From positions 1 through 54,179 of the forward strand of contig JASLXV010000050.1 of NCBI GenBank assembly GCA_030740155.1: a stretch of DNA of 54,179 nt, in the 5' to 3' direction. Position numbers and translations under genes: made by a program. This DNA comes from Dehalococcoidia bacterium. GTDB lineage: Bacteria; Chloroflexota; Dehalococcoidia; Lucifugimonadales; UBA3495. The first letter of the stretch is position 1, and every line of letters starts with the position of its first letter. Under the pieces are notes generated by a model. The model had not been told where the DNA came from and ran no database searches. It saw nothing but the letters and a program-made list of their open reading frames with translations. Positions 11,479 to 53,235 of this stretch are shown here, one piece after another.

Positions 11479-12000
11479 CTAGAGCAGGTTCTGCTCCAAC
11501 TCTTCTGCCGCCTTGGCCCCTTTCTCGGCCTCTACCTCGTCAGGCTCGCCGGACCGGTTTTGAGGGTACACGTAGATGCGGAGGTCCGGCATCCCCAAAG
11601 CGGCGGCCTGGGCGTGGGCCGCCCGCTCGAAAACGTCGTGTACGTAGACCAGGGTAGGATGGCCGGTACTCAAGAGTGCGATCCCGTCGCGCACGGCGGC
11701 GGAGGTGCAGGACCCTCAAGCCCCAACCCCAACCAGGGCATAATCCGATTCCCGAACCACCCGGTCGATTTCCTCTTGGGCCGCCGGCGTGGTGTGGCTC
11801 GGCTTGTATACCTTCACGGTACCGGAAGGCTCGAGGGAACTCTCCACGTTCTCCTCCAGGTGCTTCCAGAACACGTTAGACGAGATGTGCTGGTTGAATA
11901 CGTAGCCGACGGCCTTGCCTTTGAGCGTGTCCAGAACAATCTCCTCGGCCCGCTCGGGCAGAGCGATATCTCCTACTGGGTCGAACAGTCGCATACTCAT
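11479..12000 (-). CDS. UGSC-family selenoprotein, copy 1 (in-frame TGA = Sec at 11718-11716, ~173 aa)
   Basis: ORFs 11716-12009 and 11479-11694 are in the same frame and are joined by TGA, giving VGVGA-U-GSCTSAAVRDG...GHP. Homologous to copies 2 and 3 on both sides of the TGA. Confidence 0.85.
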
Positions 12001-12030
12001 GGCTCTCATCTCGCGTCCTGGGAAAACGGA

Positions 12031-13104
12031 TCAGGCGTTGGGAAAACGGACGGCTTTGCTCTGGGTCAGGCCTCCGTGGCTACCCCAGCCGGGGAAAAGG
12101 GACGCAAACCCTCCTCCCGAACCCCAACCTCCGGTGGTGAGGATGACCAGGTTCTCCGGTTTCCGGATGAAGGGTACCAGAGCGTCATCGTCGTCGGGAT
12201 CAGCTAGCTTGTTCCAGTGGTGCGGGCTGACTTCCGCTATGTTCCGTTTGCGCCTCATGTCGTGGACCGGGCGCAGGGCCAGCTGCATTAGCTCTCGGAC
12301 CACTTCCTGCTTACTGAGACCGCTTTCGGCCAAGTTTTGGGACACCAACGGACTGAGGGCCAGAATCATGTGCCCGCCGGTCACGTTGTTGCTGCCCAGA
12401 GTTGTTATGGCGTCGGCCAGGACGAAGAGCACGTCCTCGGCAGGGCTGTATCCGGCGCCCGTGCCGATGGAGTGGGGCCCCTCCACGGCGGTCACCGTGA
12501 CCACCGTCTCGTCCACGCTAAACCCTCGCCCAACGTGGAGCGGCTCCCAGGGGTTGACGTCCTGGTTCTCAGCGATGCAGAAGCTGTAATAGCCGGGGTG
12601 GCCGTGGGTGGTCTTGCACGGCTCGCCGGGCAGACCGCCCCCGATGTTCCAGAGGATGAGACGCACCGCCCGCCCGATCGTCGCGTTGGCCCGGGAGCCA
12701 TGGCCCAGCGCCCCCTCCGTGGTGTTGAAGTCCAGCTTCTTCACCGCCGGACCGCTCACGATAACCAGCGGGGCGCAGCAATGGGTTGTCGTCTGCACGC
12801 CGTTCAGGTTGAAGGGCTCCTCCAGCATCGCCTCCAGGGCGGCGATGACGATGGGAACGTACTCCACCAGGCAGCCGGCCATGACGCAGTTGATGGCGAT
12901 CTTCTCGATGGTAGCGATGCCGTTTCGAGGGGTGACGATGCCCACCACTTCTTTGGGGTCTCGGCCCAGGTAGCCGATGATCCGTTCGATCGCTTCCTGG
13001 GTGGGAGGCACCACCGGGAGCCCGTCGGTCCAGCCCTGTTGGTAGCAGAATTCCACCGCCGCCGCTGCGTCCGGCACATCGAATGTTCTCGATCCCAGTT
13101 GCAA
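12031..13104 (-). CDS. Uncharacterised UGSC-partner protein (WTDGLPVVPPT family), copy 1
   Basis: WTDGLPVVPPT, EKIAINCVMAGC, RANATIGRAVRL, YSFCIAEN...PWEP. Paralog of 21410-22480 and 52186-53235. TTG start after a GAAGGGGG RBS. Confidence 0.88.
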   Translation of the reverse strand: MQLGSRTFDVPDAAAAVEFCYQQGWTDGLPVVPPTQEAIERIIGYLGRDPKEVVGIVTPRNGIATIEKIAINCVMAGCLVEYVPIVIAALEAMLEEPFNLNGVQTTTHCCAPLVIVSGPAVKKLDFNTTEGALGHGSRANATIGRAVRLILWNIGGGLPGEPCKTTHGHPGYYSFCIAENQDVNPWEPLHVGRGFSVDETVVTVTAVEGPHSIGTGAGYSPAEDVLFVLADAITTLGSNNVTGGHMILALSPLVSQNLAESGLSKQEVVRELMQLALRPVHDMRRKRNIAEVSPHHWNKLADPDDDDALVPFIRKPENLVILTTGGWGSGGGFASLFPGWGSHGGLTQSKAVRFPNA

Positions 13105-13212
13105 GCCAACCCCCTTCTGCCAGCTAGAACGGCGGATAGCCCGGACTTGGGTTCCCCGGTGTTCCCCTCACCAAGCCGCCGGGTCCAAGCAGGTACCTCT
13201 TGGATAAGAGCC

Positions 13213-13241
13213 ATCCTAGTGTCACCCAGGAATGCTGTCAA
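13213..13241 (-). promoter_or_regulatory. Sigma70-type promoter for the partner-UGSC-hyuAB operon
   Basis: Minus strand TTGACA-N17-TAGGAT about 110 nt upstream of the 13104 start. Confidence 0.55.
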
Positions 13242-13625
13242 CCATCTCGTCAAGCTCGCAGGGCCGTCCTCCGGTGTCGTCAGCTAGCCCGCGTGGACAA
13301 AGGTTACGTCTTACACCACAAATACACCGCCGGGAGCAAAGTTGCAGCTAAACACGACATAAGACGAACCCACCTGCCGGGTGGCCCAGCTCTCCTGCCG
13401 CGACAATCGGCGTCACCGCTTCCTGCCGCGAGGGCTCGCTGCCCACCGTGGGGCGCCGAGTCCCCTACGGCGCGCTTATAGTCGAACCCGCCAGCCTGTG
13501 CGATAATGTATGCAGTACAAAACAGCGTCCCTCGCCAACCCGAGGGGCAAATTTCCTCTCCAAATCGCCAGGCCCGCCCGGCGGGCAGCTTCAGCTACCG
13601 CGAGTGGGCGGGCAAAGGCCGGCAC

Positions 13626-13871
13626 ATGGAACTGACAGTGAGGTTTTTCGCGTTGTACCGGGAGCGGGCCGGCCGCAGCTCCTTCCCGTTGCAGCTCCCC
13701 GAGGGAGCAACGGTGGCGGACCTGACCGCGGAGGTCCGCCGGCATTTCCCCAAGCTGGCCCCACCGCAAGTGCAGATCGTGGTGGCGGTCAACGCCGACT
13801 ACGCCGGGCCGGAGGCGGCCCTGCACGAGGGCGACGACGTTTGCCTGATACCCCCGGTCAGCGGAGGATAG
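13626..13871 (+). CDS. moaD: Molybdopterin synthase sulfur carrier subunit
   Basis: MELTVRFFALYRE...VAVN...LIPPVSGG C-terminal Gly-Gly, immediately followed by moaE. Confidence 0.92.
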   Translation: MELTVRFFALYRERAGRSSFPLQLPEGATVADLTAEVRRHFPKLAPPQVQIVVAVNADYAGPEAALHEGDDVCLIPPVSGG

Positions 13872-13872
13872 C

Positions 13873-14334: not shown

Positions 14335-14685
14335 CGGGGCCCCTGCCAGAGGTCTCTGCGCCGCCCTACACCCCACTCTACCAACGCATGATTATTCGCG
14401 CCATTTCGTCGACCTGCTGAGAATCACTCCTGTTGTAGAGCGTAGGGGTTTTGCCCACTTCCATCACTACCTCCACCCCTAGGCGCCTGCCCTCGGGCGA
14501 CCCTTCGGGACGAACACTAACCACCATTGCTTCGTTCACTAGACAGACGGTTTACCCTGAGGAACCACAGGAACACAGGAAGATGCGCTCGCAATACGAT
14601 TAGGCTCACGAGCGGTTCTGAGCTTCCCGCGAAACATTGGCAATGCCACCTGGTCCCGAGCCCTGCGGGCGGTCCAGGAATTCGA

Positions 14686-16125: not shown

Positions 16126-16163
16126 CCGTGGCCTCCCTGGTCAGGCTGGGCCAAGTATAACAG

Positions 16164-16193
16164 CAGAAGGCCCCGCCACGGCGGGGCCTTCTG
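16164..16193 (-). terminator. Hairpin (probable terminator) downstream of clpC
   Basis: Perfect 13-bp stem CAGAAGGCCCCGC/GCGGGGCCTTCTG with a 4-nt loop, ~36 nt after the clpC stop. Weak U-tract. Confidence 0.55.
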
Positions 16194-19203: not shown

Positions 19204-19217
19204 GCTATTTCCCTACC

Positions 19218-20812: not shown

Positions 20813-21355
20813 ATGGCAGATGACATCCGCACGGTCCAAATCCTTGACCCGACCGCCGAGGACGTACCCGAAGAGCTGGGCCTCAGCCCGAAGCTCCCCG
20901 ACCTGAAGGGAAAAGTGGTTGGCCTCTTGGAAAACCGCAAGTATCATGCCGACGCTTTCCTGCAAGAGCTTCAGGATGTTTTGGCCCAGGACTACGGGGC
21001 GGGCAAGGTAGTGTATACCACCAAGTTCACCTACAGCGCGGCCTGCGCGGAAGAGACCCTGGACACCATGTCCGCCGAGTGCGACGTGATTATCCACGGA
21101 ATCGCGGATTGAGGGTCCTGCACGGCGTGGGGTCTCCACGACACCGTAGCGACCGAGTCCAAAGGGGTTCCGTCGGTCAGCGTGATAACCAGTGCCTTTA
21201 CCCGGGCGGCGCATGCCCGGGCGACCTTCCTGGGAATGCCGGGCGCCCGCATTGTGGTCCTGCCCAGCCCTCTGGCCACCCGCAGCTCTGACGAAGTCCG
21301 CCAGATGGCCCACGAGTACGCCTCGGAAATCGTCGGTCATCTCGCCGGCGACTAG
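20813..21355 (+). CDS. UGSC-family selenoprotein, copy 2 (TGA = Sec at 21110-21112, 180 aa)
   Basis: AGGAGG RBS. The frame continues past TGA as HGIAD-U-GSCTAWGLHDTVATESKGVPSV...LGMPGARIVVLP to TAG 21353-21355. A hairpin follows the TGA. Confidence 0.9.
21114..21154 (+). promoter_or_regulatory. Candidate bacterial SECIS element
   Basis: ACGG-CGTGG-[GGTCT]-CCACG-(ACA)-CCGT upper stem plus GGTC/GACC lower pairing. The G-initiated loop begins 19 nt after the UGA. Confidence 0.7.
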
Positions 21356-21409: not shown

Positions 21410-22480
21410 ATGGCGAATCCGTTAGCCCTTCAGTCGCGTCGCGTCCAGGTCCAGGACTCGTTCGACGCGATCCAAGACTACTGTTCAGAACAGGGCTGGA
21501 CCGATGGCCTGCCGGTGGTTCCACCCACCGAGGACCTGGTGCGCCGGACGCTACTGGCCTACGGCGAAGATCCGTCCCTGTCCCTGGGGGTTATCCAACC
21601 GCGCAATGCCAAGGTCACCCTGGAGAAGCTGGCGGTAAACGCCGTCATGGCCGGCTGCCGGCCCGAGTACTTCCCGGTGGTAGTAGCGGTGGCCAAAGCG
21701 GTCCTTAAAGAAGAGTTCAACGTGGCCGGGGTATCGGCCACCACCGGCGGCGCCACCCCGGCCATCATCGTCAACGGGCCCGTGGTTGAGGAGCTGGGCA
21801 TCAACGGGGATGCCGGCTGTTTCGGCCCGGGCTACCGGTCCAACGCCGCCATCGGCCGCGCGGTACGCCTGGTCATCCGCAACCTGGGAGGATTGATCCC
21901 CGGAGAGATGGACAAGGCGACCCTTTCGCTGCCGGCCCGGTACACCCTCTGCTTCTCCGAAAATGTGGACCGCAGCCCCTGGGAGCCGCGGCACGTAGAG
22001 CTGGGATACGACCCCTCCGCCAGCATCATCACGGTAGCCGGCATCAGGGGCATCCATATCGTGATGGAGAACACGGTTTCCACTGGCATCGGGGTCCTCC
22101 AAACCATCGTCGGCAACATGAAAGGGACCGCGGTTTCCAACTACTGCCAAATTGGCACCGGCACCCAAATCGTTCTGGTGCTGTGCCCCGAGCACGCCGC
22201 CGACATTCACGCCTCCGGGCTGTCTAAAGCCGACGTCCGGGAGTTCATCCACCAGAACGCCCGCATGCCGATTCACCAGCTAAAAGACATCGGCCACTAC
22301 GGCAACCGCAACTGGCCTCTCTGGATCGACCAGACCAACCCCAACACCCTAGTGCCGATCGCCCTGTCTGCCGACGACATCGTGGTCGTGGTCGCCGGTG
22401 GCGATGGCCGCCACTCCGCCTGGCTGTCCGGATGGGGAGTCACCCGAATAACGACCCAGGAGATCACCCGCCCGGCCTGA
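21410..22480 (+). CDS. Uncharacterised UGSC-partner protein, copy 2
   Basis: WTDGLPVVPPT, EKLAVNAVMAGCRPEY, GCFGPGYRSNAAIGRA, YTLCFSEN...PWEP, DIVVVVAGG. Confidence 0.9.
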   Translation: MANPLALQSRRVQVQDSFDAIQDYCSEQGWTDGLPVVPPTEDLVRRTLLAYGEDPSLSLGVIQPRNAKVTLEKLAVNAVMAGCRPEYFPVVVAVAKAVLKEEFNVAGVSATTGGATPAIIVNGPVVEELGINGDAGCFGPGYRSNAAIGRAVRLVIRNLGGLIPGEMDKATLSLPARYTLCFSENVDRSPWEPRHVELGYDPSASIITVAGIRGIHIVMENTVSTGIGVLQTIVGNMKGTAVSNYCQIGTGTQIVLVLCPEHAADIHASGLSKADVREFIHQNARMPIHQLKDIGHYGNRNWPLWIDQTNPNTLVPIALSADDIVVVVAGGDGRHSAWLSGWGVTRITTQEITRPA

Positions 22481-28156: not shown

Positions 28157-29242
28157 ATGGCGTTCGCGAATGCAATCACGCCAGGGGAACGGCTTCAGGC
28201 GCTCAAGAAGTGTATCGCCCGCCAGGGCTTCGCCCGCATAATGGAGGCTCACAACGGTCTCAGCGGCATCATTGCTGAAACCGTACGAGCCAAGAAGGGC
28301 GGCCGGACCATCGAATACGACGGCCTTTGGGAAAGCAGCCTGACCGACTCCGCCAGCAAAGGGATGCCCGATTGTTCCATCGTCGGCTTCGATTCCCGCA
28401 CCCAAACCGTTGACCAGATCCTCAACGTGACCAACAAGCCCATCCTCGTGGACGGCGACACCGGGGGGGAACCCGCCCAGTTCGAGTATCTGGTGAGGCA
28501 ACTGGAACGCCTGGGCGTGTCGGCGGTGATCATCGAGGACAAGGTCTACCCCAAGCGAAACAGCCTGGACGCATCCGCCTGCCAAAACCTGGAAGACCCC
28601 CGGATTTTCGCCGGAAAGATCGCGGCCGGCAAAGACGTGAAAGTCACCGATGACTTCATGATCGTGGCCCGCCTGGAAAGCTTGATCGCCGGGGCGGGCC
28701 TGGAGGACGCCCTGTACCGGGCCGAATGCTATATCCGCGCCGGGGCCGACGGGATCATGATTCACTCGAATAACCGGGACCCCGCCGAAGTGCTCGCCTT
28801 CGCCGAAGCCTACGGCCCCCTCTGCGAGGGGCTGGGGAGACGCCCAGCCCTGGTGTGCGTGCCGACTACCTACAACACCATCTCCGATCAGGAGTTGGTA
28901 GCCAGAGGATTCAACGTCATCATCCATGCTAATCACCTCCTGCGCGCCGCCTACCGGGCCATGTGCGAGGTTGCCCTCAATATCCTGGAGACCGGCAGCA
29001 GCCATGAGGCAGACTCCCTCTGTTCACCGGTCCGGGAGATTTTTGACTGTGTGGGCCACGACCGCATCACCGAGAAGGACCGGGAGCGCGAGCAGGCCCT
29101 TCACCAGACCAGCGGCTCCGGGAGCGTCAAGGGAGACCCGCGGCTGGTCAAGGTGAAATATGTTGGGAGGACGACGAGCAAATCAGGCGCACGGGCGAGA
29201 CTGTCGTCAACATCAAATGGACCGGCCCGAGGCGCCCGATAG
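28157..29242 (+). CDS. pepM: Phosphoenolpyruvate mutase
   Basis: ICL/PEPM fold (EAHNGLS, WESSLTDS, DGDTG) with the diagnostic EDK-X5-NS motif (EDKVYPKRNS). Followed by Ppd subunits. Confidence 0.93.
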   Translation: MAFANAITPGERLQALKKCIARQGFARIMEAHNGLSGIIAETVRAKKGGRTIEYDGLWESSLTDSASKGMPDCSIVGFDSRTQTVDQILNVTNKPILVDGDTGGEPAQFEYLVRQLERLGVSAVIIEDKVYPKRNSLDASACQNLEDPRIFAGKIAAGKDVKVTDDFMIVARLESLIAGAGLEDALYRAECYIRAGADGIMIHSNNRDPAEVLAFAEAYGPLCEGLGRRPALVCVPTTYNTISDQELVARGFNVIIHANHLLRAAYRAMCEVALNILETGSSHEADSLCSPVREIFDCVGHDRITEKDREREQALHQTSGSGSVKGDPRLVKVKYVGRTTSKSGARARLSSTSNGPARGAR

Positions 29243-29272
29243 CATGATCGACGAACTTACGATGGCCCGCCA

Positions 29273-29767
29273 ATGAAAGCGCAAGCCTTCTGGGAGGTCC
29301 TGAAACAACGCGGCCTGACCTTTTTTTCCGGCGTACCGGATTCCACCTTTCATGAAGTGTATAACGCCATGGCCGGCGTTCCGGAGATCCGTTACGTCCC
29401 GGCCGTGCGGGAGGACGTGGCCCTTGGCGTCGCCAGCGCCGCTTACTTCTCCGGGCAGTTGGGGGGCGTGATCTTGCAGAACTCGGGAATCGGTAACCTC
29501 GTCAACCCTTTGACCTCCTTCAGCCTGATGTACAAAATCCCAGTGCTCCTCCTGATTGGCTGGCGCGGGTACGGGGGACCGCCCAACGACGCTCCGGAGC
29601 ACTGGATCATGGGAGTCAAAACACCGGAGATATTGGACCTTCTGGGAATCCCCTACGAAATACTGGAACCGGACAATATGGAGCCCGCCCTGGACCGGCT
29701 GCTGACGAATATCAGGGAACAATCGGTGCCGGGGGCGCTGTTGGTCCGCGCGGGGATGGTAGATTGA
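29273..29767 (+). CDS. Phosphonopyruvate decarboxylase, N-terminal (alpha) subunit
   Basis: FFSGVPDS, REDVALG, LQNSGIGNLVNPL, IGWRG...DAPEH. Adjacent to pepM. Confidence 0.88.
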   Translation: MKAQAFWEVLKQRGLTFFSGVPDSTFHEVYNAMAGVPEIRYVPAVREDVALGVASAAYFSGQLGGVILQNSGIGNLVNPLTSFSLMYKIPVLLLIGWRGYGGPPNDAPEHWIMGVKTPEILDLLGIPYEILEPDNMEPALDRLLTNIREQSVPGALLVRAGMVD

Positions 29768-30336
29768 TTCCTCGATACCTGGCAATCGAGAAGGTCCTGG
29801 AACACGTTCAGCCCGCCGACCTAGTCCTGAGCACCACGGGAATGATCTCCCGGGAGGTGTTCGTGTCCGGCGACCGGGCCGGGAATTTCTACATGCTCGG
29901 GTCCATGGGCCTCCTGTCCTCTTTCGGACTGGGGCTGGCGCTCTTCAACCCGGAGCAGCGCGTCTTCGTGCTGGAAGGTGACGGCAGCGCCCTCATGAGC
30001 CTCGGTGCTGTGCCCCTTATCGGCTCCGAGGGCCCCGGCAACTTGATCCACATCATCCTGGACAACGAAGCCTACGAGTCCACCGGAGGGCAGCCGTCCA
30101 TCAGTTCCGGGTTCGACCTGACCCGGGTGGCCGAGGGCGCCGGGTACCGCACCGTAGCCCGGACCGGCGATGTGGAAGGGCTTCAGAGCGCCCTCTTGGA
30201 GTGCGCCCGCGGTCCCGGCCCTCACCTGATTCTGGTCAAGGCCGGAATCGTCCCGGTCAAAGGTATTCCCCGGGTTTCGCACTCGCCCACGGACATCCGG
30301 GACCGGTTCAACAGCAGCGTTCACGCGGGGGAATGA
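29764..30336 (+). CDS. Phosphonopyruvate decarboxylase, TPP-binding (beta) subunit
   Basis: STTGMISRE, FYMLGSMG, GDGSALM...LDN TPP motif, YESTGGQP. Confidence 0.88.
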   Translation: MIPRYLAIEKVLEHVQPADLVLSTTGMISREVFVSGDRAGNFYMLGSMGLLSSFGLGLALFNPEQRVFVLEGDGSALMSLGAVPLIGSEGPGNLIHIILDNEAYESTGGQPSISSGFDLTRVAEGAGYRTVARTGDVEGLQSALLECARGPGPHLILVKAGIVPVKGIPRVSHSPTDIRDRFNSSVHAGE

Positions 30337-31409: not shown

Positions 31410-31424
31410 CGAACGAAGGGGGCA

Positions 31425-42846: not shown

Positions 42847-44103
42847 ATGAAGCTCGTCGTCGTAGGCGCCGGCCAGGGTGGATCGAACATCGCCGATGAG
42901 TTTGTTGCGATGGGGAAGTGGGTGTGGAAGAACAGGCGCATCCGAATCTTCACCGGGAATGAGGGTGACCCGATCTGCCGTGGGGTATTCGCGGTAAATC
43001 TCGGGGCGGGGGACCTGTACGGACTTCACCATATCCCCCTCACTGATGACCACGCAATCTTGTTGGGGACCACTGATGAGTTCCGGGGACGTGGGGCGGG
43101 CAAGGTCAATGCTGACGGGGCGGAACAGGCCCGGCGGGACGGAAGAAAAATAGTGTCGACCATACGGGATAACGGCGATGTCCCCACCGCCGACGCGATA
43201 ATGGTGATCGCCACCACCGCTGGAGGTACCGGTTCCGGCTCGGTGGGTGTCATCGTGGACCTTCTCAAAGACGCGTTCAAGAAGCCCGTTTACGCCATGC
43301 TGATCCTCCCATTCGCTAATCAGTATGACGACCCCGATAGCCTGGTGAATACCGCCACATGCCTGAAGAAGGTACTCGACAACTCTCAGGCCGACGCCGT
43401 GTTTCTGATTGACAATCAGAAGTTTGTCCGAGGCAGCGAGACCATGAGCCACAACTATGCCCAGATCAACCGGCGGATCGCTGACTCTTTCATGGATATC
43501 TTGTGCGTGGGCGAGGAAACTGAACGCCGGTTTGTTGGCGAGGTCCTCGACGCCAACGACGTCATACGGATCCTCAACGGTCCCACGGCCCTGGGCGTGA
43601 GCCAGACGCGGGTGCCCAAGAAATCCTCTTCCCTACTTAATCGGTTCAAGCGGGATGGCTCGAACAGCAAACACTTCGCCACCTCCAAAGCGCAGATCGA
43701 GAGGGCCCAGAGCGTATTGAACCGGGCACTGGGTGAGCTATCCATCGACTGCGAGTTTTCGAACAGCGGGGACGCGACCTACGATGCCCAGCACGTTCTC
43801 GGCCTCTTCTCCGGGCCTTCCCAAGAAGCCACCGAAGAGATAGTCGAGATGATGGACAACTGTCTCTCGGAGCGAGTACCGGGGGCTGGGCGCCGGAAGG
43901 GGACCTATCCGGGAAGGACCTCGGACACGATCAGCATCACGGTAATCGTATCCAACCTCGGCCGCGGCGCCGCTATGGACCGGATACATTTTTTCTACAC
44001 TGAAGCCACGAAGATGATGGAGGCGGTCCAGAAAAAGAAGCAAGGTAGAGAAAAACGTTGGGAAGAGGCCGCGAAGTCGGCGGCTCTCCTGCCCAGCCTC
44101 TAG
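42847..44103 (+). CDS. Tubulin/FtsZ-superfamily GTPase, CetZ-like (not canonical FtsZ)
   Basis: T1 GAGQGGSNIAD, AVN, T3 GRGAG, T4 AGGTGSG, LPF, IDN, T7 LDAND. No FtsZ C-terminal core peptide. AAGGAG RBS. Confidence 0.88.
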   Translation: MKLVVVGAGQGGSNIADEFVAMGKWVWKNRRIRIFTGNEGDPICRGVFAVNLGAGDLYGLHHIPLTDDHAILLGTTDEFRGRGAGKVNADGAEQARRDGRKIVSTIRDNGDVPTADAIMVIATTAGGTGSGSVGVIVDLLKDAFKKPVYAMLILPFANQYDDPDSLVNTATCLKKVLDNSQADAVFLIDNQKFVRGSETMSHNYAQINRRIADSFMDILCVGEETERRFVGEVLDANDVIRILNGPTALGVSQTRVPKKSSSLLNRFKRDGSNSKHFATSKAQIERAQSVLNRALGELSIDCEFSNSGDATYDAQHVLGLFSGPSQEATEEIVEMMDNCLSERVPGAGRRKGTYPGRTSDTISITVIVSNLGRGAAMDRIHFFYTEATKMMEAVQKKKQGREKRWEEAAKSAALLPSL

Positions 44104-44166: not shown

Positions 44167-45090
44167 ATGAGATCTTCGAGGGCGCCGGAAGGGCGCGGCA
44201 CGAACACACGAATCCTGTTCTTCGCAGCAGCAATGGTCGCAATTATTGTGGGTGTTGTTTTCACCTATTTTTCATTTGGTCCCGGTTCCCTTTCGGCAAA
44301 AGATGACCAGTCCACCCAGCCGCTGGAAGCGGCCCAGGCCTCTCCATTGCCGGATGAAGGGGCACTAGCGCCAGAGCCAACTCCCACGGCACAACCTACG
44401 GCGACCCCCCAAGCAGCTCCCACCGCCACTCCAATCCCTACCTCAACGCCAAGGCCAACGTTGGCTCCCACCCGCGTGCCTCCTACCCCTACCCCTCAGC
44501 CCACGGTGGGACCTACTGCGGAGCCGGAATCGGCCACCATTCCCAGGGTTTTGCCTGACGCGGACTTCGGAGAGGTATTGGAAGAGGGCTTGGTTCAGAT
44601 AAAGTTGCCCACCGGCGACCCGTTGGACACCTGGTATTCCTTCCAAGTTGATACCGAATCCCAGGACATCACCGTGTTCTTCGCCCTGTATGACATCGCG
44701 TCGAATGCCCTGGCCAGCACGGTAAAGATCGACGATTACTCCAAGGGCATCCCCTTGGATAACGCCGAAGTCACCCTCTATTATCCCGACGGGTCCGACC
44801 GCATTCTCTTCTTCGACGGGTCCGATGGAATCATATCCCTCATCCAGCAATACCGGTTGCCCTACGGGCCGAGCATGTTCACCTCCGGCCTGCGCCGGGC
44901 GCTCGTCTACTATGGAATGAAGCTCCAGGACGAGGCCGGCGAAGTGGATGTGGAACTCCATCTTGATCTCAGCGGGTTGTCGCAAAGCGAGGGCCTGGAA
45001 TTCAAGCTCGCAGTGCCGGGCACGGTCGAAGACGTGCTCCGCGAAATCAGGGGTCTGGTGGAGCAGATCGAAGAGGGCCGCGGGCGTTAA
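44167..45090 (+). CDS. Membrane-anchored protein with Pro/Thr linker and unknown C-terminal domain
   Basis: One N-terminal TM helix, (PT)n linker, acidic globular C-terminus. 63 nt downstream of the tubulin-like gene. Confidence 0.75.
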   Translation: MRSSRAPEGRGTNTRILFFAAAMVAIIVGVVFTYFSFGPGSLSAKDDQSTQPLEAAQASPLPDEGALAPEPTPTAQPTATPQAAPTATPIPTSTPRPTLAPTRVPPTPTPQPTVGPTAEPESATIPRVLPDADFGEVLEEGLVQIKLPTGDPLDTWYSFQVDTESQDITVFFALYDIASNALASTVKIDDYSKGIPLDNAEVTLYYPDGSDRILFFDGSDGIISLIQQYRLPYGPSMFTSGLRRALVYYGMKLQDEAGEVDVELHLDLSGLSQSEGLEFKLAVPGTVEDVLREIRGLVEQIEEGRGR

Positions 45091-45260: not shown

Positions 45261-45815
45261 CTAGCCTGTGAAGCTATTTCGCATCCGGTAGAGGGTCAGT
45301 TCGGGCTCGATGGGGGCCACGGGCATGTACTCCGCCTCCTGAATCTTGGCCACGATGAGCCACGGCCCGTCTTCATCGAGAGCGGTGCGAAATATCGATT
45401 CCAACTCCTCCAGGTTGTCAACCATGGCGGTGCGCCGTATGCCGCAGCTTTGGGCCACCTGAGCCAGATCGGTTCCCTGGGCCGTGTGGCTGGCTTGGTG
45501 GCCCGTCTGGCCCCACTGCTCGTTGTCCCACACCACCACAACTAGGTTCTTGGGCGCCTCCCGCCCGATGGTCGCGATGCCGCCCAGATTCATCAGCAGC
45601 GACCCGTCACCGTCCAGCGATATGATTCGCTCGGTGGTGGATAGCGCCATGCCCAGGGCAATGGAGGAGCACAAGCCCATGCTGCCGTAGGTGTAGAAGT
45701 TGCGGTCCCGGTGGCCGGCGTGCCTCAACTCGTCGGAGGTCGGCCCCAGATTGCCGACGATGGGGCTGTTTCCGGCATGCCGTAGAATCAGCTTGGTGGC
45801 CTCGAACCTAAGCAA
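45261..45815 (-). CDS. Sulfopyruvate/phosphonopyruvate decarboxylase-like TPP-binding (beta) subunit
   Basis: NFYTYGSMG, DGDGSLLMNLG...WDN TPP motif. Probable TTG start at 45815 (alternative ATG at 45827). Confidence 0.85.
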   Translation of the reverse strand: MLRFEATKLILRHAGNSPIVGNLGPTSDELRHAGHRDRNFYTYGSMGLCSSIALGMALSTTERIISLDGDGSLLMNLGGIATIGREAPKNLVVVVWDNEQWGQTGHQASHTAQGTDLAQVAQSCGIRRTAMVDNLEELESIFRTALDEDGPWLIVAKIQEAEYMPVAPIEPELTLYRMRNSFTG

Positions 45816-46314
45816 TCTTACCCCCATGGAGCAACTGAGTCATGCAGATGGCCACCGGCTGGCGGCCGGCGTGGCACAGCTTCAGAGCGCCGTCCATCAA
45901 TAGGTCCATCTTATGCTCGTCTTCTAGGGTGAAGTGGACCAGGCCCAACAGGTCCAGAATCGGCCGGGTGGTGCGGCCCATGGCCACCTGGGCGATATTG
46001 AATTCGCCGACGCCGCCTCGAAGGTTGATGAAGAGTGGAATGGGCGTCCGGCAGGGGATGCACAAGCTGGCTAGGGCGTTGACACAGTTGCCGAACCCGC
46101 TGGATTGCATGAACACTGCAGAGTTTCGCCCCACCGCATAGGCGCCGGCGGCGATGCCGATGGCCTCCTCTTCCCGGGTGGCCGATACCAGGTGAAAGAA
46201 CGGGTCGGCTTCGATCAAGCTGGTTACCTGATGAATGGAGATGTCCGGCACGTAGACGATCATGGAAGTGTTCCAGTCTTTCAACGCCTTCACAATGGTT
46301 TCAGCCCAGTTCAT
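45808..46314 (-). CDS. Sulfopyruvate decarboxylase (ComD)-like alpha subunit
   Basis: YVPD, TREEEAIGIAAG, MQSSGFGN, RG...EFNIAQ. Confidence 0.85.
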   Translation of the reverse strand: MNWAETIVKALKDWNTSMIVYVPDISIHQVTSLIEADPFFHLVSATREEEAIGIAAGAYAVGRNSAVFMQSSGFGNCVNALASLCIPCRTPIPLFINLRGGVGEFNIAQVAMGRTTRPILDLLGLVHFTLEDEHKMDLLMDGALKLCHAGRQPVAICMTQLLHGGKIA

Positions 46315-46817: not shown

Positions 46818-47966
46818 GTGGTCATGGTACAAAACATCGAGGCGGATTGCGCGACGTGTCCAGACTTTACCTGTCGCCTGGGGTTTCGCGACCTGGGCCC
46901 AGACAGTTGCCCCATGAAGGGTGATTTCCCCACGCCACAGGAGCTGTATGGGGACCGGGAGGACCTCCTCGCCACGGCGCGAAACGCTGCCATGATTGAG
47001 GGTGAGGGATACCGGAGGTGGACCCGGTCAAAAGAGATTATCGAACTGGCCCAGCGCCTAGGCGTATCCAAGGTGGGACTAGCCGCCTGCAAGACCATGA
47101 AACTGGAGCAGGACATCTACGCGGACTGGCTCGCCGACGCCGGGTTCGAGGTGCTGCGGGGCCGGGACGCCGTTGCCGACGGCCAGTGCGGACCTCGGGA
47201 GCAAGCTGCTTTCCTCAACTCCGCTGTTACGGGCCTCAACGTGGTGATGGGAATGTGCGTCGGGCATGACTCCCTGTTCATGCACACTTCCCGGGCCCTG
47301 GTCACACCGTTGGTCTCTCAGGACTCCTTCCTGCGCCACAACCCGGCGGCCGCCTTGCATACCTCCCGCACCTACTTCGACGGCCCCTTGCACCACGCCC
47401 ACAAGGAGGCCTACGCGTCCCCGATGGTCGAGCCGGGGACCTTGCAAGAGGCCGCCCGGGACCCCTCCGGCCCGGCGGCGGACCGTCTGGAAGAGCTGGC
47501 GACCCAGGTGGTCCAGGACGGTGACGGCAGGTGGTGCCGGGTGGAGGAACTGCTGGAATTCGCCGGCCGGGCCGGAGCAAAAACGCTTGGATTGGTTTTC
47601 TGCTCGGGCTTTCGTGAGGAAGCGAAGGTCCTCAACCGCCTGCTGGGGATCAACGGCTTCAAGACCCTTTCCATCCAGTGCAAAGCCGGCGCCGTGCCCA
47701 AGGAAGAGATGGGCATTCTCGATTCCCAGAAGGTGCGGCCCGGTAACAAAGAGATGATGTGCAATCCCTTGGCCCAGGCGGTGGTCATGAACCGGTCCGG
47801 CGCGGACCTCAACATCCTCTTGGGCCAGTGCGCGGGCCACGACGCCGGCACTATCGCCACCACCGAAGCCCTCGCCGTGTCCCTGGCGGTCAAAGACCGG
47901 GTCCTGGCCCACAACACCGTTGTGGAACTTTACCGGGGCGCCCTTCTGGATCGGGAATCGGCTTGA
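46818..47966 (+). CDS. Cys-rich putative metal-binding protein with two tandem DUF1847-like domains
   Basis: CATC...C...CP N-terminus. Two repeats of W[TC]R..E...A...G...GL..C, C[GN]P..QA, G.C.GHD, [QK]D..L.HN. Confidence 0.8.
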   Translation: MVMVQNIEADCATCPDFTCRLGFRDLGPDSCPMKGDFPTPQELYGDREDLLATARNAAMIEGEGYRRWTRSKEIIELAQRLGVSKVGLAACKTMKLEQDIYADWLADAGFEVLRGRDAVADGQCGPREQAAFLNSAVTGLNVVMGMCVGHDSLFMHTSRALVTPLVSQDSFLRHNPAAALHTSRTYFDGPLHHAHKEAYASPMVEPGTLQEAARDPSGPAADRLEELATQVVQDGDGRWCRVEELLEFAGRAGAKTLGLVFCSGFREEAKVLNRLLGINGFKTLSIQCKAGAVPKEEMGILDSQKVRPGNKEMMCNPLAQAVVMNRSGADLNILLGQCAGHDAGTIATTEALAVSLAVKDRVLAHNTVVELYRGALLDRESA

Positions 47967-48322: not shown

Positions 48323-49543
48323 ATGGCGCTTGACTTTCTCGAAGGGATCAACGTCTTGGATTTGGGGCAGGGAATCAGCGGGCCTTTCTGCGCAAAGCTG
48401 CTCGCCGACCTGGGCGCCAGGGTGGTCAAGGTGGAGCCGCCGGTCGGAGACTCATCCCGAGGTGTGGGACCCTTCCCCGGCGACCTACCCGACGCTGAGA
48501 AGAGCGGCACCTATCTGTCCATGAACACCAACAAGCTGGGGATCACCCTGAACGTGGAGACCGCCGGCGGCCGGGAGCTTTTGCTGCAACTGGTTGATGG
48601 AGCCGACATACTGATCGAAAACTACCCGGCCTCATACCTGCCGGGGATTGGCCTGGACTTTGCCACCCTCCACACCCGGAACCCCGAGTTGGTGATGACC
48701 TCCATCACCCCCTTTGGGCTGACGGGCCCCTGGGCCAACTACCAGGCCGACAATCTGATCATATGCAATGTCAGCGGCCATTCCCGGGAACACCCGGGCC
48801 CGGTGGAAGACCTGGAAACGCAACCACCCCTGCAACTGGCGGCTCACCAGGCTGATTTTGTCGCCGGCCTGGCTGGGGCCACCGCCACGATGCTGGCCTT
48901 CAACCGGCGCCGCCTTGACGGCGTCGGCAGCCACGTCGACGTATCGGGGATGGAGGCCTTGGCTCTGCTGCCCCAGACCACTCTGGCCCAATTCGCGCTG
49001 GGCCAAGAAGCCCGCGGCCAGCACCGGGATGAGCCGACCCGCCTGGCCCTGCTGGCCCTGCTTCCCTGCCAGGACGGTTACGTGGGCGTTTCACCCCGCC
49101 AGCAGGACCAATGGGATAATTTTGTGACCCTCCTGGGCAACCCCGAATGGGCGGCGGACCCCAAGTTTGCCACCCGGGACTCCCGTTTGGCCAACTGGAA
49201 CGAGCTGGAGCCTCGGCTGATTGCCTGGTCATCCGGATTCAAGAAGGACGATATATACCGCCAGGCCCAAGCTCACCACGTTCCTTCCTTCCCGTTGAAT
49301 ACCGCCGCCGACCTTTTCAAGTCGGCCCAATTCGAAGCGCGGGAGTTCTTCCACGAGGTGGAGCACCCCGCGGCCGGGACGCAGCGTTATCCCGGCGTCC
49401 CCATCCAGTTGGCGTCCGGCAAGAAGCTGGAGTTGACTCCCGCCCCATTGTTGAGCCAGGACACCCAGGCCATCCTGGGAGACGGCGGCCTGGGGCTGAG
49501 CCGGGAAGAGATAGCCGCGCTACGAGTCGCCGGCACGATCTGA
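48323..49543 (+). CDS. CaiB/BaiF family III CoA-transferase
   Basis: LEGINVLDL, GPFCAKLLADLGARVVKVEPP, NTNKLGITLN, ADILIEN, SITPFG, conserved Asp (QADFVAG). Confidence 0.92.
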   Translation: MALDFLEGINVLDLGQGISGPFCAKLLADLGARVVKVEPPVGDSSRGVGPFPGDLPDAEKSGTYLSMNTNKLGITLNVETAGGRELLLQLVDGADILIENYPASYLPGIGLDFATLHTRNPELVMTSITPFGLTGPWANYQADNLIICNVSGHSREHPGPVEDLETQPPLQLAAHQADFVAGLAGATATMLAFNRRRLDGVGSHVDVSGMEALALLPQTTLAQFALGQEARGQHRDEPTRLALLALLPCQDGYVGVSPRQQDQWDNFVTLLGNPEWAADPKFATRDSRLANWNELEPRLIAWSSGFKKDDIYRQAQAHHVPSFPLNTAADLFKSAQFEAREFFHEVEHPAAGTQRYPGVPIQLASGKKLELTPAPLLSQDTQAILGDGGLGLSREEIAALRVAGTI

Positions 49544-49566
49544 AGAATGCGAAGGGGGTGAGCCCA

Positions 49567-50205
49567 GTGAGGATAGACCCGCAGAATTTCGAAGGCTTCA
49601 ACCGCGTGCTGACCGCGGTGGTGGTCCCGCGTCCCATCGCCTTCGTCTCCACCATATCCACCGACGGATTCGTCAACGTCGCGCCCTACTCCTTTTTCAA
49701 TGTGATGTCTTACAATCCGGCGACCGTGGTCTTCTCTTCCTCCCGCCACACTGGAGGAGGACGAGGGAAACGTAAGGACACGCTGGCGAACATCGAAGAA
49801 ACCGGGGAGTTCGTCGTCAACATAGTGGTCGACGACATCGCTGAAGCCATGAACCTGACCGCCGCCGAGTACCCCACCGAGGCCAACGAGTTTGAAATCG
49901 CCGGATTGACTCCGGCGCCATCGGAGTTGGTAGCCCCACCCCGCGTGGCCGAGTCGCCGGTGAACATGGAATGCCGGCTGAAGCAGGTGATTTCCCTGGG
50001 AATCGGGAAGGGCCGGCACGGCCTGGTCATCGGCGAAATCGTACTGATGCACGTCCGCGACGACCTGATAGACGGGCACCGCATCAACCACCAGAAGCTC
50101 CGGCCCACGGGCCGCTTGGCCGGAAATATGTATTGTCACACCGTCGATACCTTCGAGCTGGTCCGTCCCAATTACAAAGAGGGAGAAAGCCCGCAAATAG
50201 GCTGA
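49567..50205 (+). CDS. Flavin reductase-like FMN-binding protein
   Basis: VVPRPIAFVST, NVAPYSFFN, KDTLANIEETGEFVVN, PRVAESPVNMEC, GRLAG. Confidence 0.9.
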   Translation: MRIDPQNFEGFNRVLTAVVVPRPIAFVSTISTDGFVNVAPYSFFNVMSYNPATVVFSSSRHTGGGRGKRKDTLANIEETGEFVVNIVVDDIAEAMNLTAAEYPTEANEFEIAGLTPAPSELVAPPRVAESPVNMECRLKQVISLGIGKGRHGLVIGEIVLMHVRDDLIDGHRINHQKLRPTGRLAGNMYCHTVDTFELVRPNYKEGESPQIG

Positions 50206-50334
50206 CCCCAGAGTCCCCAGGAATCGCGAGACCGGCAACATGGGCTCGCGGCCCGCTTGTTTCCAACCCGGGCGCCACCTTTTTCCCGAGGAGCCGGGAA
50301 TGGGCAAGCCCTAGGAAAAGGAGCGTTCAACCTC

Positions 50335-51507
50335 ATGCGCCAACTGCCTCTGGAGGGAGTAAGGGTTACCGACCTTAGCTGGCAAATTGCCGGCCCCACC
50401 TGCAACCGCTACCTGGGGATGATGGGAGCGGAGGTAATCCGCATCGAAAGCAACAAGCGCCCGGACCCCTACAGGGAGCGGGTCATCAACAATTTCATCA
50501 ACCAGTCGAAGAAAAGCATCACGCTGAACCTGGGGCACCCCAAGGGTACAGACCTCGTCCGGAGGCTGGCCGGCCTGAGCGACATTGTGATGGAGAACTT
50601 CGCCTGCGGTGTCATCGAGCGCCTGGGGCTGGGCTATGACGAGTTGCGCCGGGCCAACCCGGACATCATCATGCTCTCTTCGGCCGGCCTGGGCCACTCC
50701 GGCCCAGACATGAAGCAGGTGGCCTACGGCACCCTGATCCAGTGTTTCACCGGCTGGAGTTCCCTGCAGGGCTATCCCGACGGGGGCCCGGAGATAGGCG
50801 GCATCTGGACCGACCCGGTGGTGGGAATGCTGGAGGTATTCCTGATTAACGCCGCCCTCCACCGCAAGTGGCAGCAGGGGGAAGGTCAATATATCGACCT
50901 CTCCATGGCCGAGGCCACCACCATGCTGCTTCCTGAAGCCATCCTGGATTACTCGATGAACGGCCGGATCCAGGAGCCGCGAGGCAACCGGCACCAGGCC
51001 CACGCCCCCCACGGCAACTATCCCTGCCTCGGCTACGACCGCTGGATCGGAATCGCCGTGACCGGTGATTCCCAGTGGGAGGCCCTGTGCCGGGCCCTCG
51101 GCTGCGTGGAATTGCTGGAGGACTCCCGGTTCTCCGACGCCATGGCCCGCTGGAAGAACCAGGATGCTCTGGACCGGGCCCTGGCCGCCAAAACGAGGGA
51201 TCATGACGCCGATGAGCTGACGGCCAAGCTGCAAGAGGCCGGGGTGCCCGCGGGGCCAACACTGGCCGTCGACCAACTCTGGACCAACACCCATCTCCGG
51301 GAGCGAGGCTTCTTCCAGAGCTACGAGACTGAGGATGGAACGATCCGGGATATCCCCGGCGTACCCTGGCGGTTCGACGGCGCCGCCGACGCCAATATGA
51401 CTCCTCCGCCCCTTCGGGGCCAGCACAACGCGTACGTCTTCGAGGACCTGCTGGGTCTGTCCAAGCCGGAGATCGAGGCCCTGGTCGAAGAGCAGGTAAT
51501 CTACTGA
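50335..51507 (+). CDS. CaiB/BaiF family III CoA-transferase
   Basis: PLEGVRVTDL, AGP, GAEVIRIE, KKSITLNL, DIVMENF, WTDP, GQYIDLSM. AAGGAG RBS. Confidence 0.92.
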   Translation: MRQLPLEGVRVTDLSWQIAGPTCNRYLGMMGAEVIRIESNKRPDPYRERVINNFINQSKKSITLNLGHPKGTDLVRRLAGLSDIVMENFACGVIERLGLGYDELRRANPDIIMLSSAGLGHSGPDMKQVAYGTLIQCFTGWSSLQGYPDGGPEIGGIWTDPVVGMLEVFLINAALHRKWQQGEGQYIDLSMAEATTMLLPEAILDYSMNGRIQEPRGNRHQAHAPHGNYPCLGYDRWIGIAVTGDSQWEALCRALGCVELLEDSRFSDAMARWKNQDALDRALAAKTRDHDADELTAKLQEAGVPAGPTLAVDQLWTNTHLRERGFFQSYETEDGTIRDIPGVPWRFDGAADANMTPPPLRGQHNAYVFEDLLGLSKPEIEALVEEQVIY

Positions 51508-51522
51508 TACCGGGTCCGCCCG

Positions 51523-51551
51523 TTACCGTGGTTCGGAAAAGAGACTATAAT
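51523..51551 (+). promoter_or_regulatory. Possible promoter for UGSC copy 3
   Basis: TTACCG-N17-TATAAT, 46 nt before the ATG at 51598. Confidence 0.45.
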
Positions 51552-51597
51552 CAATCCATGCCATCATGGGGTGACCACCACGACAGGAGTTCGAAAC

Positions 51598-52152
51598 ATG
51601 ACGAGTAAGATTTCGATACTGAGCCCAGCCGCCGAGGCCTGGCGTCCCGTTGAGGCCACCGTTCCTCGCATCGATGACCTGAAGGGCGCCACCGTTGCCA
51701 TCTTGAACAACCGGTGGACCAGCATGGACATCATCTCAGAGCAGATCGCCATCATCCTCAAGGAGCAGTACGGCGTGGCCGATGTGTTCGAGTTGGGGAT
51801 ACCCACGTCCTCCAAGGCGTCCCGGGAGACCTTCGAAGAAGTCTTGTCCCGGGCGCAGATGGCCGTGGTGGGCCTGGCCAATTGAGGGTCCTGCACCGCG
51901 TGGAGTGTCCACGACAGCGTTGAACTGGTGAAAGAGGGAGTGCCCTCGGTGGTTTTGGTTACCGAGCGGTTTGTCCCCCTCGCCAAAGCATCCATGAAGG
52001 GCAACGGCGTGCCCGACGCGCCGATGGTGGTGCTGCCGAAGACCGAACTCACCGAGTACGTCCCGCCGGAGACCGTCCGGGTGGTGGCGCGGGAGACCGT
52101 TGCCCAGATAATCGCCCAGCTGAGCACCGCCGCCGCGCCAAACGGCCCGTAG
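51598..52152 (+). CDS. UGSC-family selenoprotein, copy 3 (TGA = Sec at 51883-51885, 184 aa)
   Basis: AGGAG RBS. ORFs 51571-51885 and 51928-52152 are in the same frame and are joined as VGLAN-U-GSCTAWSVHDSVELVKEGVP. Confidence 0.9.
51899..51913 (+). promoter_or_regulatory. Candidate SECIS apical hairpin
   Basis: CGTGGA-[GTG]-TCCACG beginning 13 nt after the UGA, the same offset as in copy 2. Confidence 0.6.
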
Positions 52153-52185
52153 CGGACTACCCGAGCCCAACCCAAGGAGCGATGC

Positions 52186-53235
52186 TTGGCCCAAGCACGA
52201 GACCTCACATCATCCAGCCTTCCGGCGGACGACTCTCCCGAGTCGGTGTTCCAGCTGATGTTGGACCAGGACTGGTCCGACGGCTTGCCGGTAATTCCGC
52301 CCACCCCGGACCGGGTCCACTCCATGGTGGAGGGAAGCCGCCGGGACCCTTCTCACCTGGTGGGTTACATCAACCCCGAGGGGGGCGCCGCCACCGTGGA
52401 GAAGATCGCGGTCAACGCGGTGATGGCCGGGTGCTTGCCCGAGTACATGCCGGTGCTCATCGCCGCCGTGCAGGCCATAACCGAGCCGGGGTTCAACATC
52501 CACGGTATCCAGACCACCACCAACCCAGTGGCCCCCGCCCTCATCATCAACGGCCCGATCCGCAATCAGCTAGGCGTCAACAGCGGCCGCGGCTGTCTGG
52601 GCCCCGGCTGGCGGGCCAACGCCACCATCGGGCGGGCCCTGCGGTTTCTGCTCATCAACGTGGGGAACGCCAAGCCCCTGACCACCGACATGGCGATCCA
52701 CGGGATGCCCGGCAAGTACACCTTCTGCTTCGGCGAGAACGAGGAAGAGAGCGTCTGGGACCCGCTTCAAGTGGAGCGCGGCCTGGCCCCGGACCAGAGC
52801 GCCGTCACCGTGGTCGGCTCCCAGGGCACCAGCAACTGTCTCACCCTCTACAAAGAGGCGGAAAGCATCCTCACGGTGATCGCCAGCGCCATGGCCGATT
52901 TCAGTGACAACAACTACCTGCTGGGCGGAGGTAATCCGATGCTGGTGTTGAGTCCGGGACACTCCCGGGTGCTCACCGAGCAGGGCTTCACCAAGCAGGC
53001 GGTCAAAGAATGGCTCTTCGAGCACTGCAAGATTCCCTTGGACCGGATCCCCCAGGAGACCTCGATCGTCCACTACGAGAAGGAGTTCGTCAGGGATGGT
53101 GATTTGGTCTGTCTCTGCCGCAGCCCCGAGGACATCGTGGTGGTGGTCGCCGGTGGCCCGGAGCCGTACCACGCCACCTACTGCGCCAGCTTCGGCGACA
53201 CCCAGGCCGCGACCAAACTGGTGGCGACGGACTAG
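52186..53235 (+). CDS. Uncharacterised UGSC-partner protein, copy 3
   Basis: WSDGLPVIPPT, EKIAVNAVMAGCLPEY, QTTT, GCLGPGWRANATIGRA, YTFCFGEN, DIVVVVAGG. AAGGAG RBS and TTG start. Confidence 0.9.
   Translation: MAQARDLTSSSLPADDSPESVFQLMLDQDWSDGLPVIPPTPDRVHSMVEGSRRDPSHLVGYINPEGGAATVEKIAVNAVMAGCLPEYMPVLIAAVQAITEPGFNIHGIQTTTNPVAPALIINGPIRNQLGVNSGRGCLGPGWRANATIGRALRFLLINVGNAKPLTTDMAIHGMPGKYTFCFGENEEESVWDPLQVERGLAPDQSAVTVVGSQGTSNCLTLYKEAESILTVIASAMADFSDNNYLLGGGNPMLVLSPGHSRVLTEQGFTKQAVKEWLFEHCKIPLDRIPQETSIVHYEKEFVRDGDLVCLCRSPEDIVVVVAGGPEPYHATYCASFGDTQAATKLVATD

Follow-up and report, generated by a model that had tools for sequence, protein, structure and literature searches.

A repeated gene pair of a UGSC selenoprotein and a linked partner in a SAR202-like Dehalococcoidia genome: a candidate selenocysteine-nucleophile reductase

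The 54,179-nucleotide (nt) contig JASLXV010000050.1 of a Dehalococcoidia bacterium (GenBank assembly GCA_030740155.1; the whole stretch is referred to here as the window) carries three copies of a module in which a small gene with an in-frame TGA lies next to a gene for a protein of about 350 amino acids (aa). We call the former, which encodes a UGSC protein, S and the latter, its partner, B, with the locus number (1 to 3) as a suffix. An earlier note, made from the sequence alone, had reported these pairs, and what it saw is all there: the three loci lie where it placed them, each with one S and one B gene, the four motifs it quoted recur in B1, B2, and B3 (37 to 40% identical pairwise), and the gene order is flipped in locus 1 (Table 1). 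The gaps between the genes, given there as about 30 to 55 nt, measure 30, 54, and 33 nt in loci 1 to 3 (21 nt in locus 1 if S1 begins at ATG 12009). Each S gene has a single TGA interruption within the motif U-G-S-C and ends with TAG. For S1, further in-frame ATGs exist at 12009 and 11994, but ATG 12000 was preferred because its register agrees with that of a paralog on another contig, C68, where the B paralog is 85% identical to B1.

Table 1. Coordinates of the three modules and their associated features in the window
Feature	Position	Strand	Description
S1, UGSC selenoprotein	11479..12000	-	~173 aa; TGA 11718-11716 = codon 95; PF24696, 113 bits
SECIS-like hairpin, S1	11683..11703	-	-8.4 kcal/mol, z +0.84; register ~2 nt off family consensus; weakest of the three
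B1, partner ('DGLP'/Unknown_1 family)	12031..13104	-	357 aa; inferred start TTG 13104
Sigma-70-like promoter match, 10/12	13213..13241	-	upstream of B1; consensus match only
S2, UGSC selenoprotein	20813..21355	+	180 aa; TGA 21110-21112 = Sec100; Cys103; passes PF24696 (173 bits) and NF041046 (140 bits)
SECIS-like hairpin, S2	21126..21140	+	5-bp stem, 5-nt loop starting with G, 18 nt after UGA; -10.7 kcal/mol
B2, partner	21410..22480	+	356 aa; model pLDDT 95.4, pTM 0.93
S3, UGSC selenoprotein	51598..52152	+	184 aa; TGA 51883-51885 = Sec96; PF24696, 116 bits
SECIS-like hairpin, S3	51899..51913	+	6-bp stem, GUG loop; -7.8 kcal/mol, z +0.11
B3, partner	52186..53235	+	349 aa; same strand, after two CoA-transferase III genes and a flavin reductase gene (48323-51507)

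When TGA was translated as selenocysteine (Sec, U), all three S proteins matched the Pfam UGSC family PF24696 over the full domain, far above its cutoff of 25 bits. S2 also exceeded the 125-bit cutoff of NCBIfam NF041046; S1 (78 bits) and S3 (80 bits) scored below it. Throughout the genome, 28 of 28 S proteins matched UGSC, and no other family was matched by more than one of them. By these matches, S1 to S3 are members of the UGSC family.

Several lines of sequence evidence strongly support decoding of the S-gene UGA as Sec. The genome (3.6 Mb; SAR202-like Dehalococcoidia; 93.7% complete, 7.65% contaminated) encodes SelA, SelB, SelD, and tRNA-Sec, each above its family cutoff, and the SelD gene itself has an in-frame TGA. 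In a tblastn survey, the TGA occupied one and the same column in all 28 S paralogs of the genome; because these share only 17 to 75% identity, its position is not a matter of chance. TGA was likewise found in all 150 S matches listed across the class Dehalococcoidia. In GTDB genomes, where we analyzed the 78 best-scoring of at least 610 B loci, there were 85 S matches, comprising 73 with TGA, 2 with a clean CGSC, 2 without the motif, and 3 partial ones; in the other 5 the search pattern had caught an upstream Cys, and these were left out of the Cys-form count. Cys stood at the Sec column in 13 of 16 full-length fusions of S and B, a set biased toward genes without TGA. Plasmids of cultured organisms yielded 24 records with B and 16 with S, and the 12 loci tested had Cys (8 loci), TGA (2 loci), or Met (2 loci) at this column. 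Cys-type S occurs in haloarchaea, Arthrobacter, Roseovarius, Variovorax, and Neorhizobium.

A hairpin at positions +15 to +33 after the TGA of the S family agrees with the bacterial selenocysteine insertion sequence (SECIS) model, which, in a 2026 review (PMC13188914), has a loop of 3 to 9 nt with G in the first two loop positions, a stem of 4 to 16 bp, a distance of 16 to 37 nt from the UGA, and a minimum free energy of ≤−7.5 kcal/mol. Compared to synonymous shuffles, the hairpin had a mean z score of −1.16 in the 28 sequences of this genome and −1.45 in 73 homologs, versus −0.1 in flanking control windows. Among 100 distinct sequences, the pair +21:+27, both of whose members are third codon positions, was GC in 55 and CG in 39, with G at +23 in 80 and U at +24 in 89. 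Within the 28 own-genome sequences, 81.6% of cells pair, a level reached by 0 of 500 shuffles and by none of the slid controls (26 to 47%); these controls are somewhat flattering, since the structure was derived from the same sequences. Taken individually, the S1 and S3 hairpins were no better than their own synonymous shuffles, and the z score of S1 leaves its hairpin unsupported on its own. Contigs from RNA runs (X1, X5, and X8) span the TGA of locus 2 with the base unaltered, and one 879-nt contig extends from S2 into B2; as contigs without reads, they do not show strand, level, or a single transcript. Thus, the contention of the earlier note that the TGA is not a real stop is borne out by the Sec machinery, by Cys at the same column in relatives, and by the covarying hairpin; both the selA, selB, selC, and selD functions and the CGSC homologs for which it proposed to search were found. 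Its further claim of a Sec-dependent system is right for this genome and too wide for the family: Cys forms occur in five groups and a Met stands at this column in two plasmid fusions, so the family does not require selenium.

S and B are closely linked in most of the loci surveyed. In this genome, tblastn identified 28 S and 33 B domains; 27 of the 28 S domains lie within 1 kb of a B, including 11 fusions, two of which are frameshifted in the B part. Among the 78 GTDB B loci, S was fused in 9 and within 400 nt in 54 (63 of 78 together), within 3 kb in 7, and further away in 1; it was not found at the other 7, two of which lie at contig edges. Both families were present in 58 of 151 Dehalococcoidia genomes, S only in 2, B only in 1, and neither in 90. 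Two of the three single-family genomes rest on marginal matches, and no statistical test was applied to these counts because related genomes are not independent. Of 65 long B representatives scanned, 47 had a UGSC domain, complete or half, on either side of B (E ≤ 0.01); redoxin (2), FTR-beta (2), and TrxR (1) domains were fused to B in the same set.

The two families also appear to have expanded together. Identity matrices of S and B from 26 own-genome pairs were correlated (Spearman coefficient, 0.41; 0 of 5,000 permutations as high), the nearest neighbor was common to S and B in 14 of the 26 pairs, and the 9 intact own-genome fusions formed one clade in both trees, that of B being a quick tree. 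Strain duplicates were rejected as the source of the copy number, the closest pairs being 75% (S) and 85% (B) identical; single-contig genomes hold 18 to 19 S matches. These results strongly support the joint inheritance, duplication, and fusion of S and B, in line with the expansion by paralogy that the earlier note had supposed. Its notion of an obligate two-subunit system fared less evenly: the tight linkage, the fusions, and the modelled complex described below speak for it, whereas the ratio is not 1:1 (33 B to 28 S), 6 B lie more than 1 kb from any S, and some B are fused to redoxin, FTR-beta, or TrxR domains instead. As a separate observation, a 5-Mb Dehalococcoidia genome (G149) gave 207 UGSC and 223 partner candidates at first look, of which 21 and 13, respectively, were scored and all matched; its true copy number may be far above 28.

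To what protein fold does S belong? The S2 model (pLDDT, 94.6) is a five-strand α/β/α sandwich in which a helix begins at Sec. The top structural matches were flavodoxin-like, Rossmann-like, and receiver folds (Z up to 11.7; root mean square deviation [rmsd], 2.9; 129 residues aligned). Thioredoxin was absent from the rows shown, which is not a formal exclusion. S thus models as flavodoxin-like and probably not as thioredoxin-like. A PDB sequence search with the S alignment returned nothing below an E value of 0.2, and the GRDB model PF07355 matched 0 of the 28 own-genome S proteins at E ≤ 1. In an HHalign comparison, a profile of 100 S sequences matched a GrdB/PrdB-type profile of 28 proteins with a probability of 96.1% and an E value of 3e-9, with the UxxC motif in register, while three cross-comparisons and a reversed control gave 0.3 to 0.6% (reversed, 0.6%). 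The resolving Cys of this motif is retained in 97 of the 100 S rows. The profile match strongly supports S as a stand-alone relative of the Sec-bearing domain of GrdB/PrdB. Elsewhere the genome carries true GrdB genes (6 full-length and 1 short, PrdB-like) and 8 GrdE-type matches; located on contigs C69, C17, C54, C79, C91, and C59, they constitute a second expanded Sec reductase family, in which three GrdB-type proteins examined lack the resolving Cys after Sec or have Thr or Ser there.

The B family comprises 5,162 representatives at 50% identity, haloarchaea included, and the nearest B2 relatives that bear names come from SAR202/Dehalococcoidia. B1 to B3 matched no Pfam or NCBIfam family at E ≤ 1, PF09338 included. 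Conserved in B2 are D32, P39-T40, C83, T111-T112, N145, R150, C181, E184, and G330, and the conserved polar positions also include N77, N158, D168, and W191. Sequence searches of the PDB with B2 and with the B alignment gave nothing below an E value of 0.2, and the ESM Atlas returned only unnamed clusters of the same family, with no usable named match once the UGSC and redoxin families were skipped. Three structure searches revealed no clear fold match (best Z, 6.0, to an 88-residue chorismate-mutase-like sheet), which indicates neither a new fold nor the lack of one. In Foldseek, class I fumarate hydratase chains made up 14 of the 15 rows shown with E < 0.001 (best E, 1e-4), and the M. jannaschii enzyme gave the longest alignment of the wide search (196 residues; model positions 86 to 356 on chain positions 2 to 283). 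This likeness is weak (TM score, 0.25 to 0.30; Z, 4.5; rmsd, 5.5; 196 aligned) and lies below the level at which such matches are reliable. By profile comparison, we rejected B as a fumarate hydratase (probability, 0.3%; 0.1 to 0.5% in global modes), as GrdB, and as GrdE/PrdA (0.1% against an 11-row GrdE-type alignment).

Some B homologs have unusual architectures. Five (P0136, P0157, P0173, P0257, and P0264) are tandem B-B proteins of about 710 to 740 aa with degenerate DGLP motifs and without a UGSC domain, and four (P0130, P0194, P0213, and P0217) are fusions of B with a small NifU-C-like CxxC domain (one weak Pfam match, E = 0.0085), a candidate alternative electron carrier.

We modelled the S-B complex using a natural Cys-type stand-in pair, L055, from an alphaproteobacterium, whose B is 41% identical to B2. 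The complex reached an ipSAE of 0.87, compared to 0.02 for the best of three controls; in reference sets, 116 of 157 solved complexes passed the mark applied, as did 2 of 215 mismatched pairs, and these counts are approximate for the alignments used. Runs agreed in at least 95% of contacts, with a partner pLDDT of at least 89. On the S side, the predicted interface consists of the N-terminal arm with the invariant Pro13, the Sec-equivalent loop with C111, and Phe129; on the B side, it consists of the N-terminal strand, the PPT motif, the Thr-Thr loop (106-113), and residues 154-169. Taken with the linkage and the fusions, the model makes it very probable that S and B form one physical enzyme, encoded either by adjacent genes or as a fusion.

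Gene neighborhoods offer hints to a reductant and to the kind of substrate. A gene for a CxxC thioredoxin reductase (TrxB-like) is close by at 6 of the 12 plasmid loci, all six with Cys-type S, in orders such as B-S-trxB in Roseovarius (sp. THAF8), trxB-trxA-B-S in Arthrobacter (sp. ERGS1:01), and trxB-TctC-SDR-B-S in Variovorax. The Cys-type operon of Halalkalicoccus jeotgali has the order B-S-B. Other neighbors include TTT/TRAP receptors, CoA-transferases III, luciferase-like monooxygenases, short-chain dehydrogenases/reductases (SDRs), lyases, and amidohydrolases, with no family at more than 10 of the 78 GTDB loci. In this genome, CoA-transferase III genes are not enriched within 3 kb of modules (7 of 93; 4.3 expected), nor are genes for enoyl-CoA hydratase or trxB; two families show nominal enrichment only, in 12 tests without correction, namely luciferase-like monooxygenases (P = 0.03; 4 of 27 genes) and SDRs (P = 0.02; 6 of 48 genes). 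The neighbors thus suggest organic-acid catabolism and, with own-genome enrichment absent or nominal, name no substrate. The remark in the earlier note that the modules stand next to different catabolic genes is correspondingly weak: CoA-transferase III is not enriched, and locus 2 sits between the IMPDH gene and dnaE. Two plasmid arrangements deserve mention in their own right. In Paracoccus ferrooxidans pFER4 (L177, 1-15125), an S-B pair lies between selA and selB, with DsrE, TusA, and cysteine desulfurase genes. The two Met-type loci, L183 (8323-10047) and L184 (8386-10071), on Sporomusa and Vibrio plasmids, encode divergent S-B fusions with Met for Sec/Cys, and both adjoin aconitase X and DUF126 genes.

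On balance, we lean slightly toward S and B being a thioredoxin-recharged, Sec-nucleophile reductase that would work like PrdB/PrdA of D-proline reductase with an unrelated substrate-binding subunit. The published account of D-proline reductase (PMC11229817) has PrdA binding the substrate and PrdB supplying the attacking Sec; the variant with Cys instead was inactive. Like PrdB/PrdA and GrdB/GrdE (PF07355 and PF09338), the module combines a homologous Sec domain, with U in register, on a small subunit with a larger partner and thioredoxin-type reductant links; unlike GrdB/PrdB, S has no N-terminal GRDB region, and unlike GrdE/PrdA, B shows no evident pyruvoyl maturation. S would dock on B by its N-terminal arm, placing the U-G-S loop against the Thr-Thr loop of B (B2 106-113) as in the model. 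B would bind a small organic substrate at the S-B interface, probably a carboxylic acid, judging by neighboring TTT/TRAP transporter, CoA transferase, and lyase genes. The selenolate may then attack the substrate and cleave a C-N, C-S, or C-O bond, as in Prd/Grd, or alternatively reduce an S-O, N-O, or S-S bond. Cys103 would resolve the adduct to a selenenyl-sulfide, which a thioredoxin reductase/thioredoxin-type CxxC system would re-reduce; the genes for this system would lie beside the module at some loci and, in this genome, away from the modules. Paralogs, with B 26 to 85% identical within the genome, would serve different substrates. With the pyruvoyl partner replaced by an unrelated subunit, S and B would not be a glycine or proline reductase.

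A number of observations weigh against this reductase model. The S-GrdB/PrdB alignment is 97 columns long, has 13% identity, and leaves out the N-terminal half of S. B has no profile match to the pyruvoyl subunit GrdE/PrdA, so that Prd/Grd-type substrate activation is not evident for it. No Cys occupies the nucleophile position in 3 of the 16 full-length fusions, two plasmid fusions have Met there, and 6 of 33 own-genome B genes are without S within 1 kb. A TrxB gene accompanies just 3 of the 78 GTDB loci and 0 of the 22 own-genome regions, and the three trxB genes of this genome all lie more than 3 kb from any module. In the model, neither chain is more conserved at the interface than elsewhere (P = 0.19 and 0.74); the model itself is of a stand-in pair, with fusion proteins present in both input alignments; and the two Cys of B are not named in the interface, unnamed residues being uncertain.

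Three other explanations were weighed. The same complex might catalyze non-redox chemistry, with B distantly related to the alpha domain of class I fumarate hydratase, S covering the pocket where the beta subunit would otherwise sit, and Sec/Cys serving as a covalent nucleophile or as metal or Fe-S ligands in a hydro-lyase, isomerase, or group-transfer reaction. The hydratase (7xky, 6uqn; PF05681) is the best whole-domain match of B, dominating the Foldseek rows and giving the longest alignment, and it shares a large-plus-small two-subunit layout; aconitase X genes lie beside the Met-type fusions, and lyases and isomerases are common among the neighbors. Yet the fold likeness is equalled by unrelated folds, the profile comparison is null, the hydratase family has three invariant Cys where B has two conserved ones (C83 and C181), the small partner here is a flavodoxin-like Sec protein, and the UxxC pair and TrxB links indicate redox turnover; we consider this explanation unlikely. 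Slightly less probable still is that B is the catalyst, through its own C83, C181, and E184, and S a dedicated carrier of electrons (or of sulfur or selenium), replaceable by other CxxC domains as thioredoxin serves ribonucleotide reductase. These residues are conserved in 119, 119, and 123 of 124 diverse B rows, respectively; fusions of B with redoxin, FTR-beta, TrxR, and NifU-like domains occur as well; B outnumbers S, and B-S-B and tandem-B loci exist; and the Paracoccus pair sits between selA and selB together with DsrE, TusA, and cysteine desulfurase genes. On the other hand, the ancestry of S lies with a domain that attacks substrate rather than with a carrier fold; C83, C181, and E184 are not among the named residues of the modelled interface, with the uncertainty just given; of the 31 own-genome paralogs, 29 keep C83 and just 25 keep C181; and one FTR-beta fusion (P0175) also holds a UGSC half.

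That the TGA is a real stop or a sequencing artifact, the small genes being split or dead and the pairing incidental, is improbable in the extreme. Assembly contamination, the two fusions elsewhere with frameshifts in the B part, and the S1 hairpin, no more stable than its shuffles, can be cited for it. Against it stand the TGA in every own-genome paralog and every listed match across the class, Cys at the same column in relatives, the Sec machinery, the covarying hairpin, and the same TGA in the RNA-run contigs.

Regarding the surroundings of the modules, gaps of 30, 72, and −4 nt separate, in order, B1, S1, and the two hydantoinase/oxoprolinase genes (A and B; 7577-11406), and B1-S1 probably heads an operon with the latter two. 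At locus 2, S2 and B2 share a frame, and readthrough of the S2 TAG into B2 (a predicted 555 aa) was considered and rejected: among 7 related loci, S and B are separate genes in different frames in 4, a fifth also scored as out of frame, a sixth has them in frame with an intervening stop, and the seventh is a true fusion. In four locus 2 orthologs (L032, L033, L036, and L037), unrelated genes of 0.8 to 4.3 kb are inserted between S and B with the IMPDH/dnaE context largely retained, possibly an insertion hot spot. Elsewhere in the window, 42847-44103 (+) encodes a CetZ-like tubulin/FtsZ protein (PF00091 and CetZ_C, PF21011) in a Chloroflexota genome; CetZ is known mainly from archaea. A 307-aa open reading frame (ORF) without a Pfam match follows it (44167-45090). 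At 28157-32054 (+), genes for a phosphoenolpyruvate mutase, a split thiamine pyrophosphate (TPP) decarboxylase, a class V aminotransferase, and a methyltransferase stand in a row and look like an aminoethylphosphonate biosynthesis cluster; a second split TPP-decarboxylase pair lies at 45261-46314 (−). A DUF1847 protein with three matched stretches is encoded at 46824-47966 (+). Long ORFs without a Pfam match occur at 445-1752 (−) and at 5678-7119, where ORFs of opposite strands overlap and the coding strand is unsettled.

Part of this picture has a precedent. Zhang and Gladyshev (2008) described UGSC as a major ocean selenoprotein with a "likely" thioredoxin fold, fused to "Unknown_1" (PMC2398784, Fig. 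S1A); the printed Unknown_1 alignment shows the region around the conserved MAGC motif of B, so that the fusion of UGSC to this partner was already seen in 2008. The S family and the partner region are the same here; what differs is that B nearly always occurs in linkage with S, numbers 33 copies in a single genome, and has haloarchaeal members, and that S models as flavodoxin-like where a thioredoxin fold was then supposed. The accessible parts of the 2007 Olavius paper (PMC1976440) and of the 2026 review (PMC13188914) name no function for UGSC. The genome-wide pairing, the expansion, and the GrdB link were not found in the literature searched, mostly without subscription papers. The expansion resembles the SAR202 paralog expansions of Landry et al. 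(2017; PMC5395668) in being a multicopy enzyme family in a SAR202-like genome, which here also has 93 CoA-transferase III and 27 luciferase-like monooxygenase genes; the terms "seleno" and "thioredoxin" do not occur in the main text of that paper. With an in-frame TGA in S and a partner without a family, the S-B expansion is hidden from annotation. The earlier note had expected standard gene callers to report small hypothetical fragments, and indeed 120 of 120 listed homologs cover only 52 to 55% of the locus 2 protein and a Paracoccus record splits S into two hypotheticals, but N-terminal fragments now have a precomputed PF24696 label.

Altogether, an abundant orphan selenoprotein, UGSC, gains a partner, a PrdB/GrdB precedent, a predicted active-site interface, and a likely reductant, and the question of what S and B do together is directly testable because complete Cys-type operons in harmless cultured strains avoid selenoprotein expression. 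The UGSC family alone accounts for 28 Sec genes in this genome, compared to record counts of 57 to 63 selenoproteins for whole bacterial genomes, which suggests that SAR202-type bacteria use selenium extensively, most of this use being unannotated. More tentatively, and with considerable doubt, S and B may represent a third selenoprotein-B enzyme class beside the glycine and proline reductases, in which B, pyruvoyl-free, of no solved fold, and at the most a derivative of class I fumarate hydratase alpha that lacks the cluster, would present substrates to a GrdB-like selenolate. If so, SAR202 and other uncultured lineages would hold dozens of substrate-specific paralogs that reductively open C-S, C-N, and C-O bonds of persistent dissolved organic compounds, a reductive counterpart to the SAR202 monooxygenase expansions.

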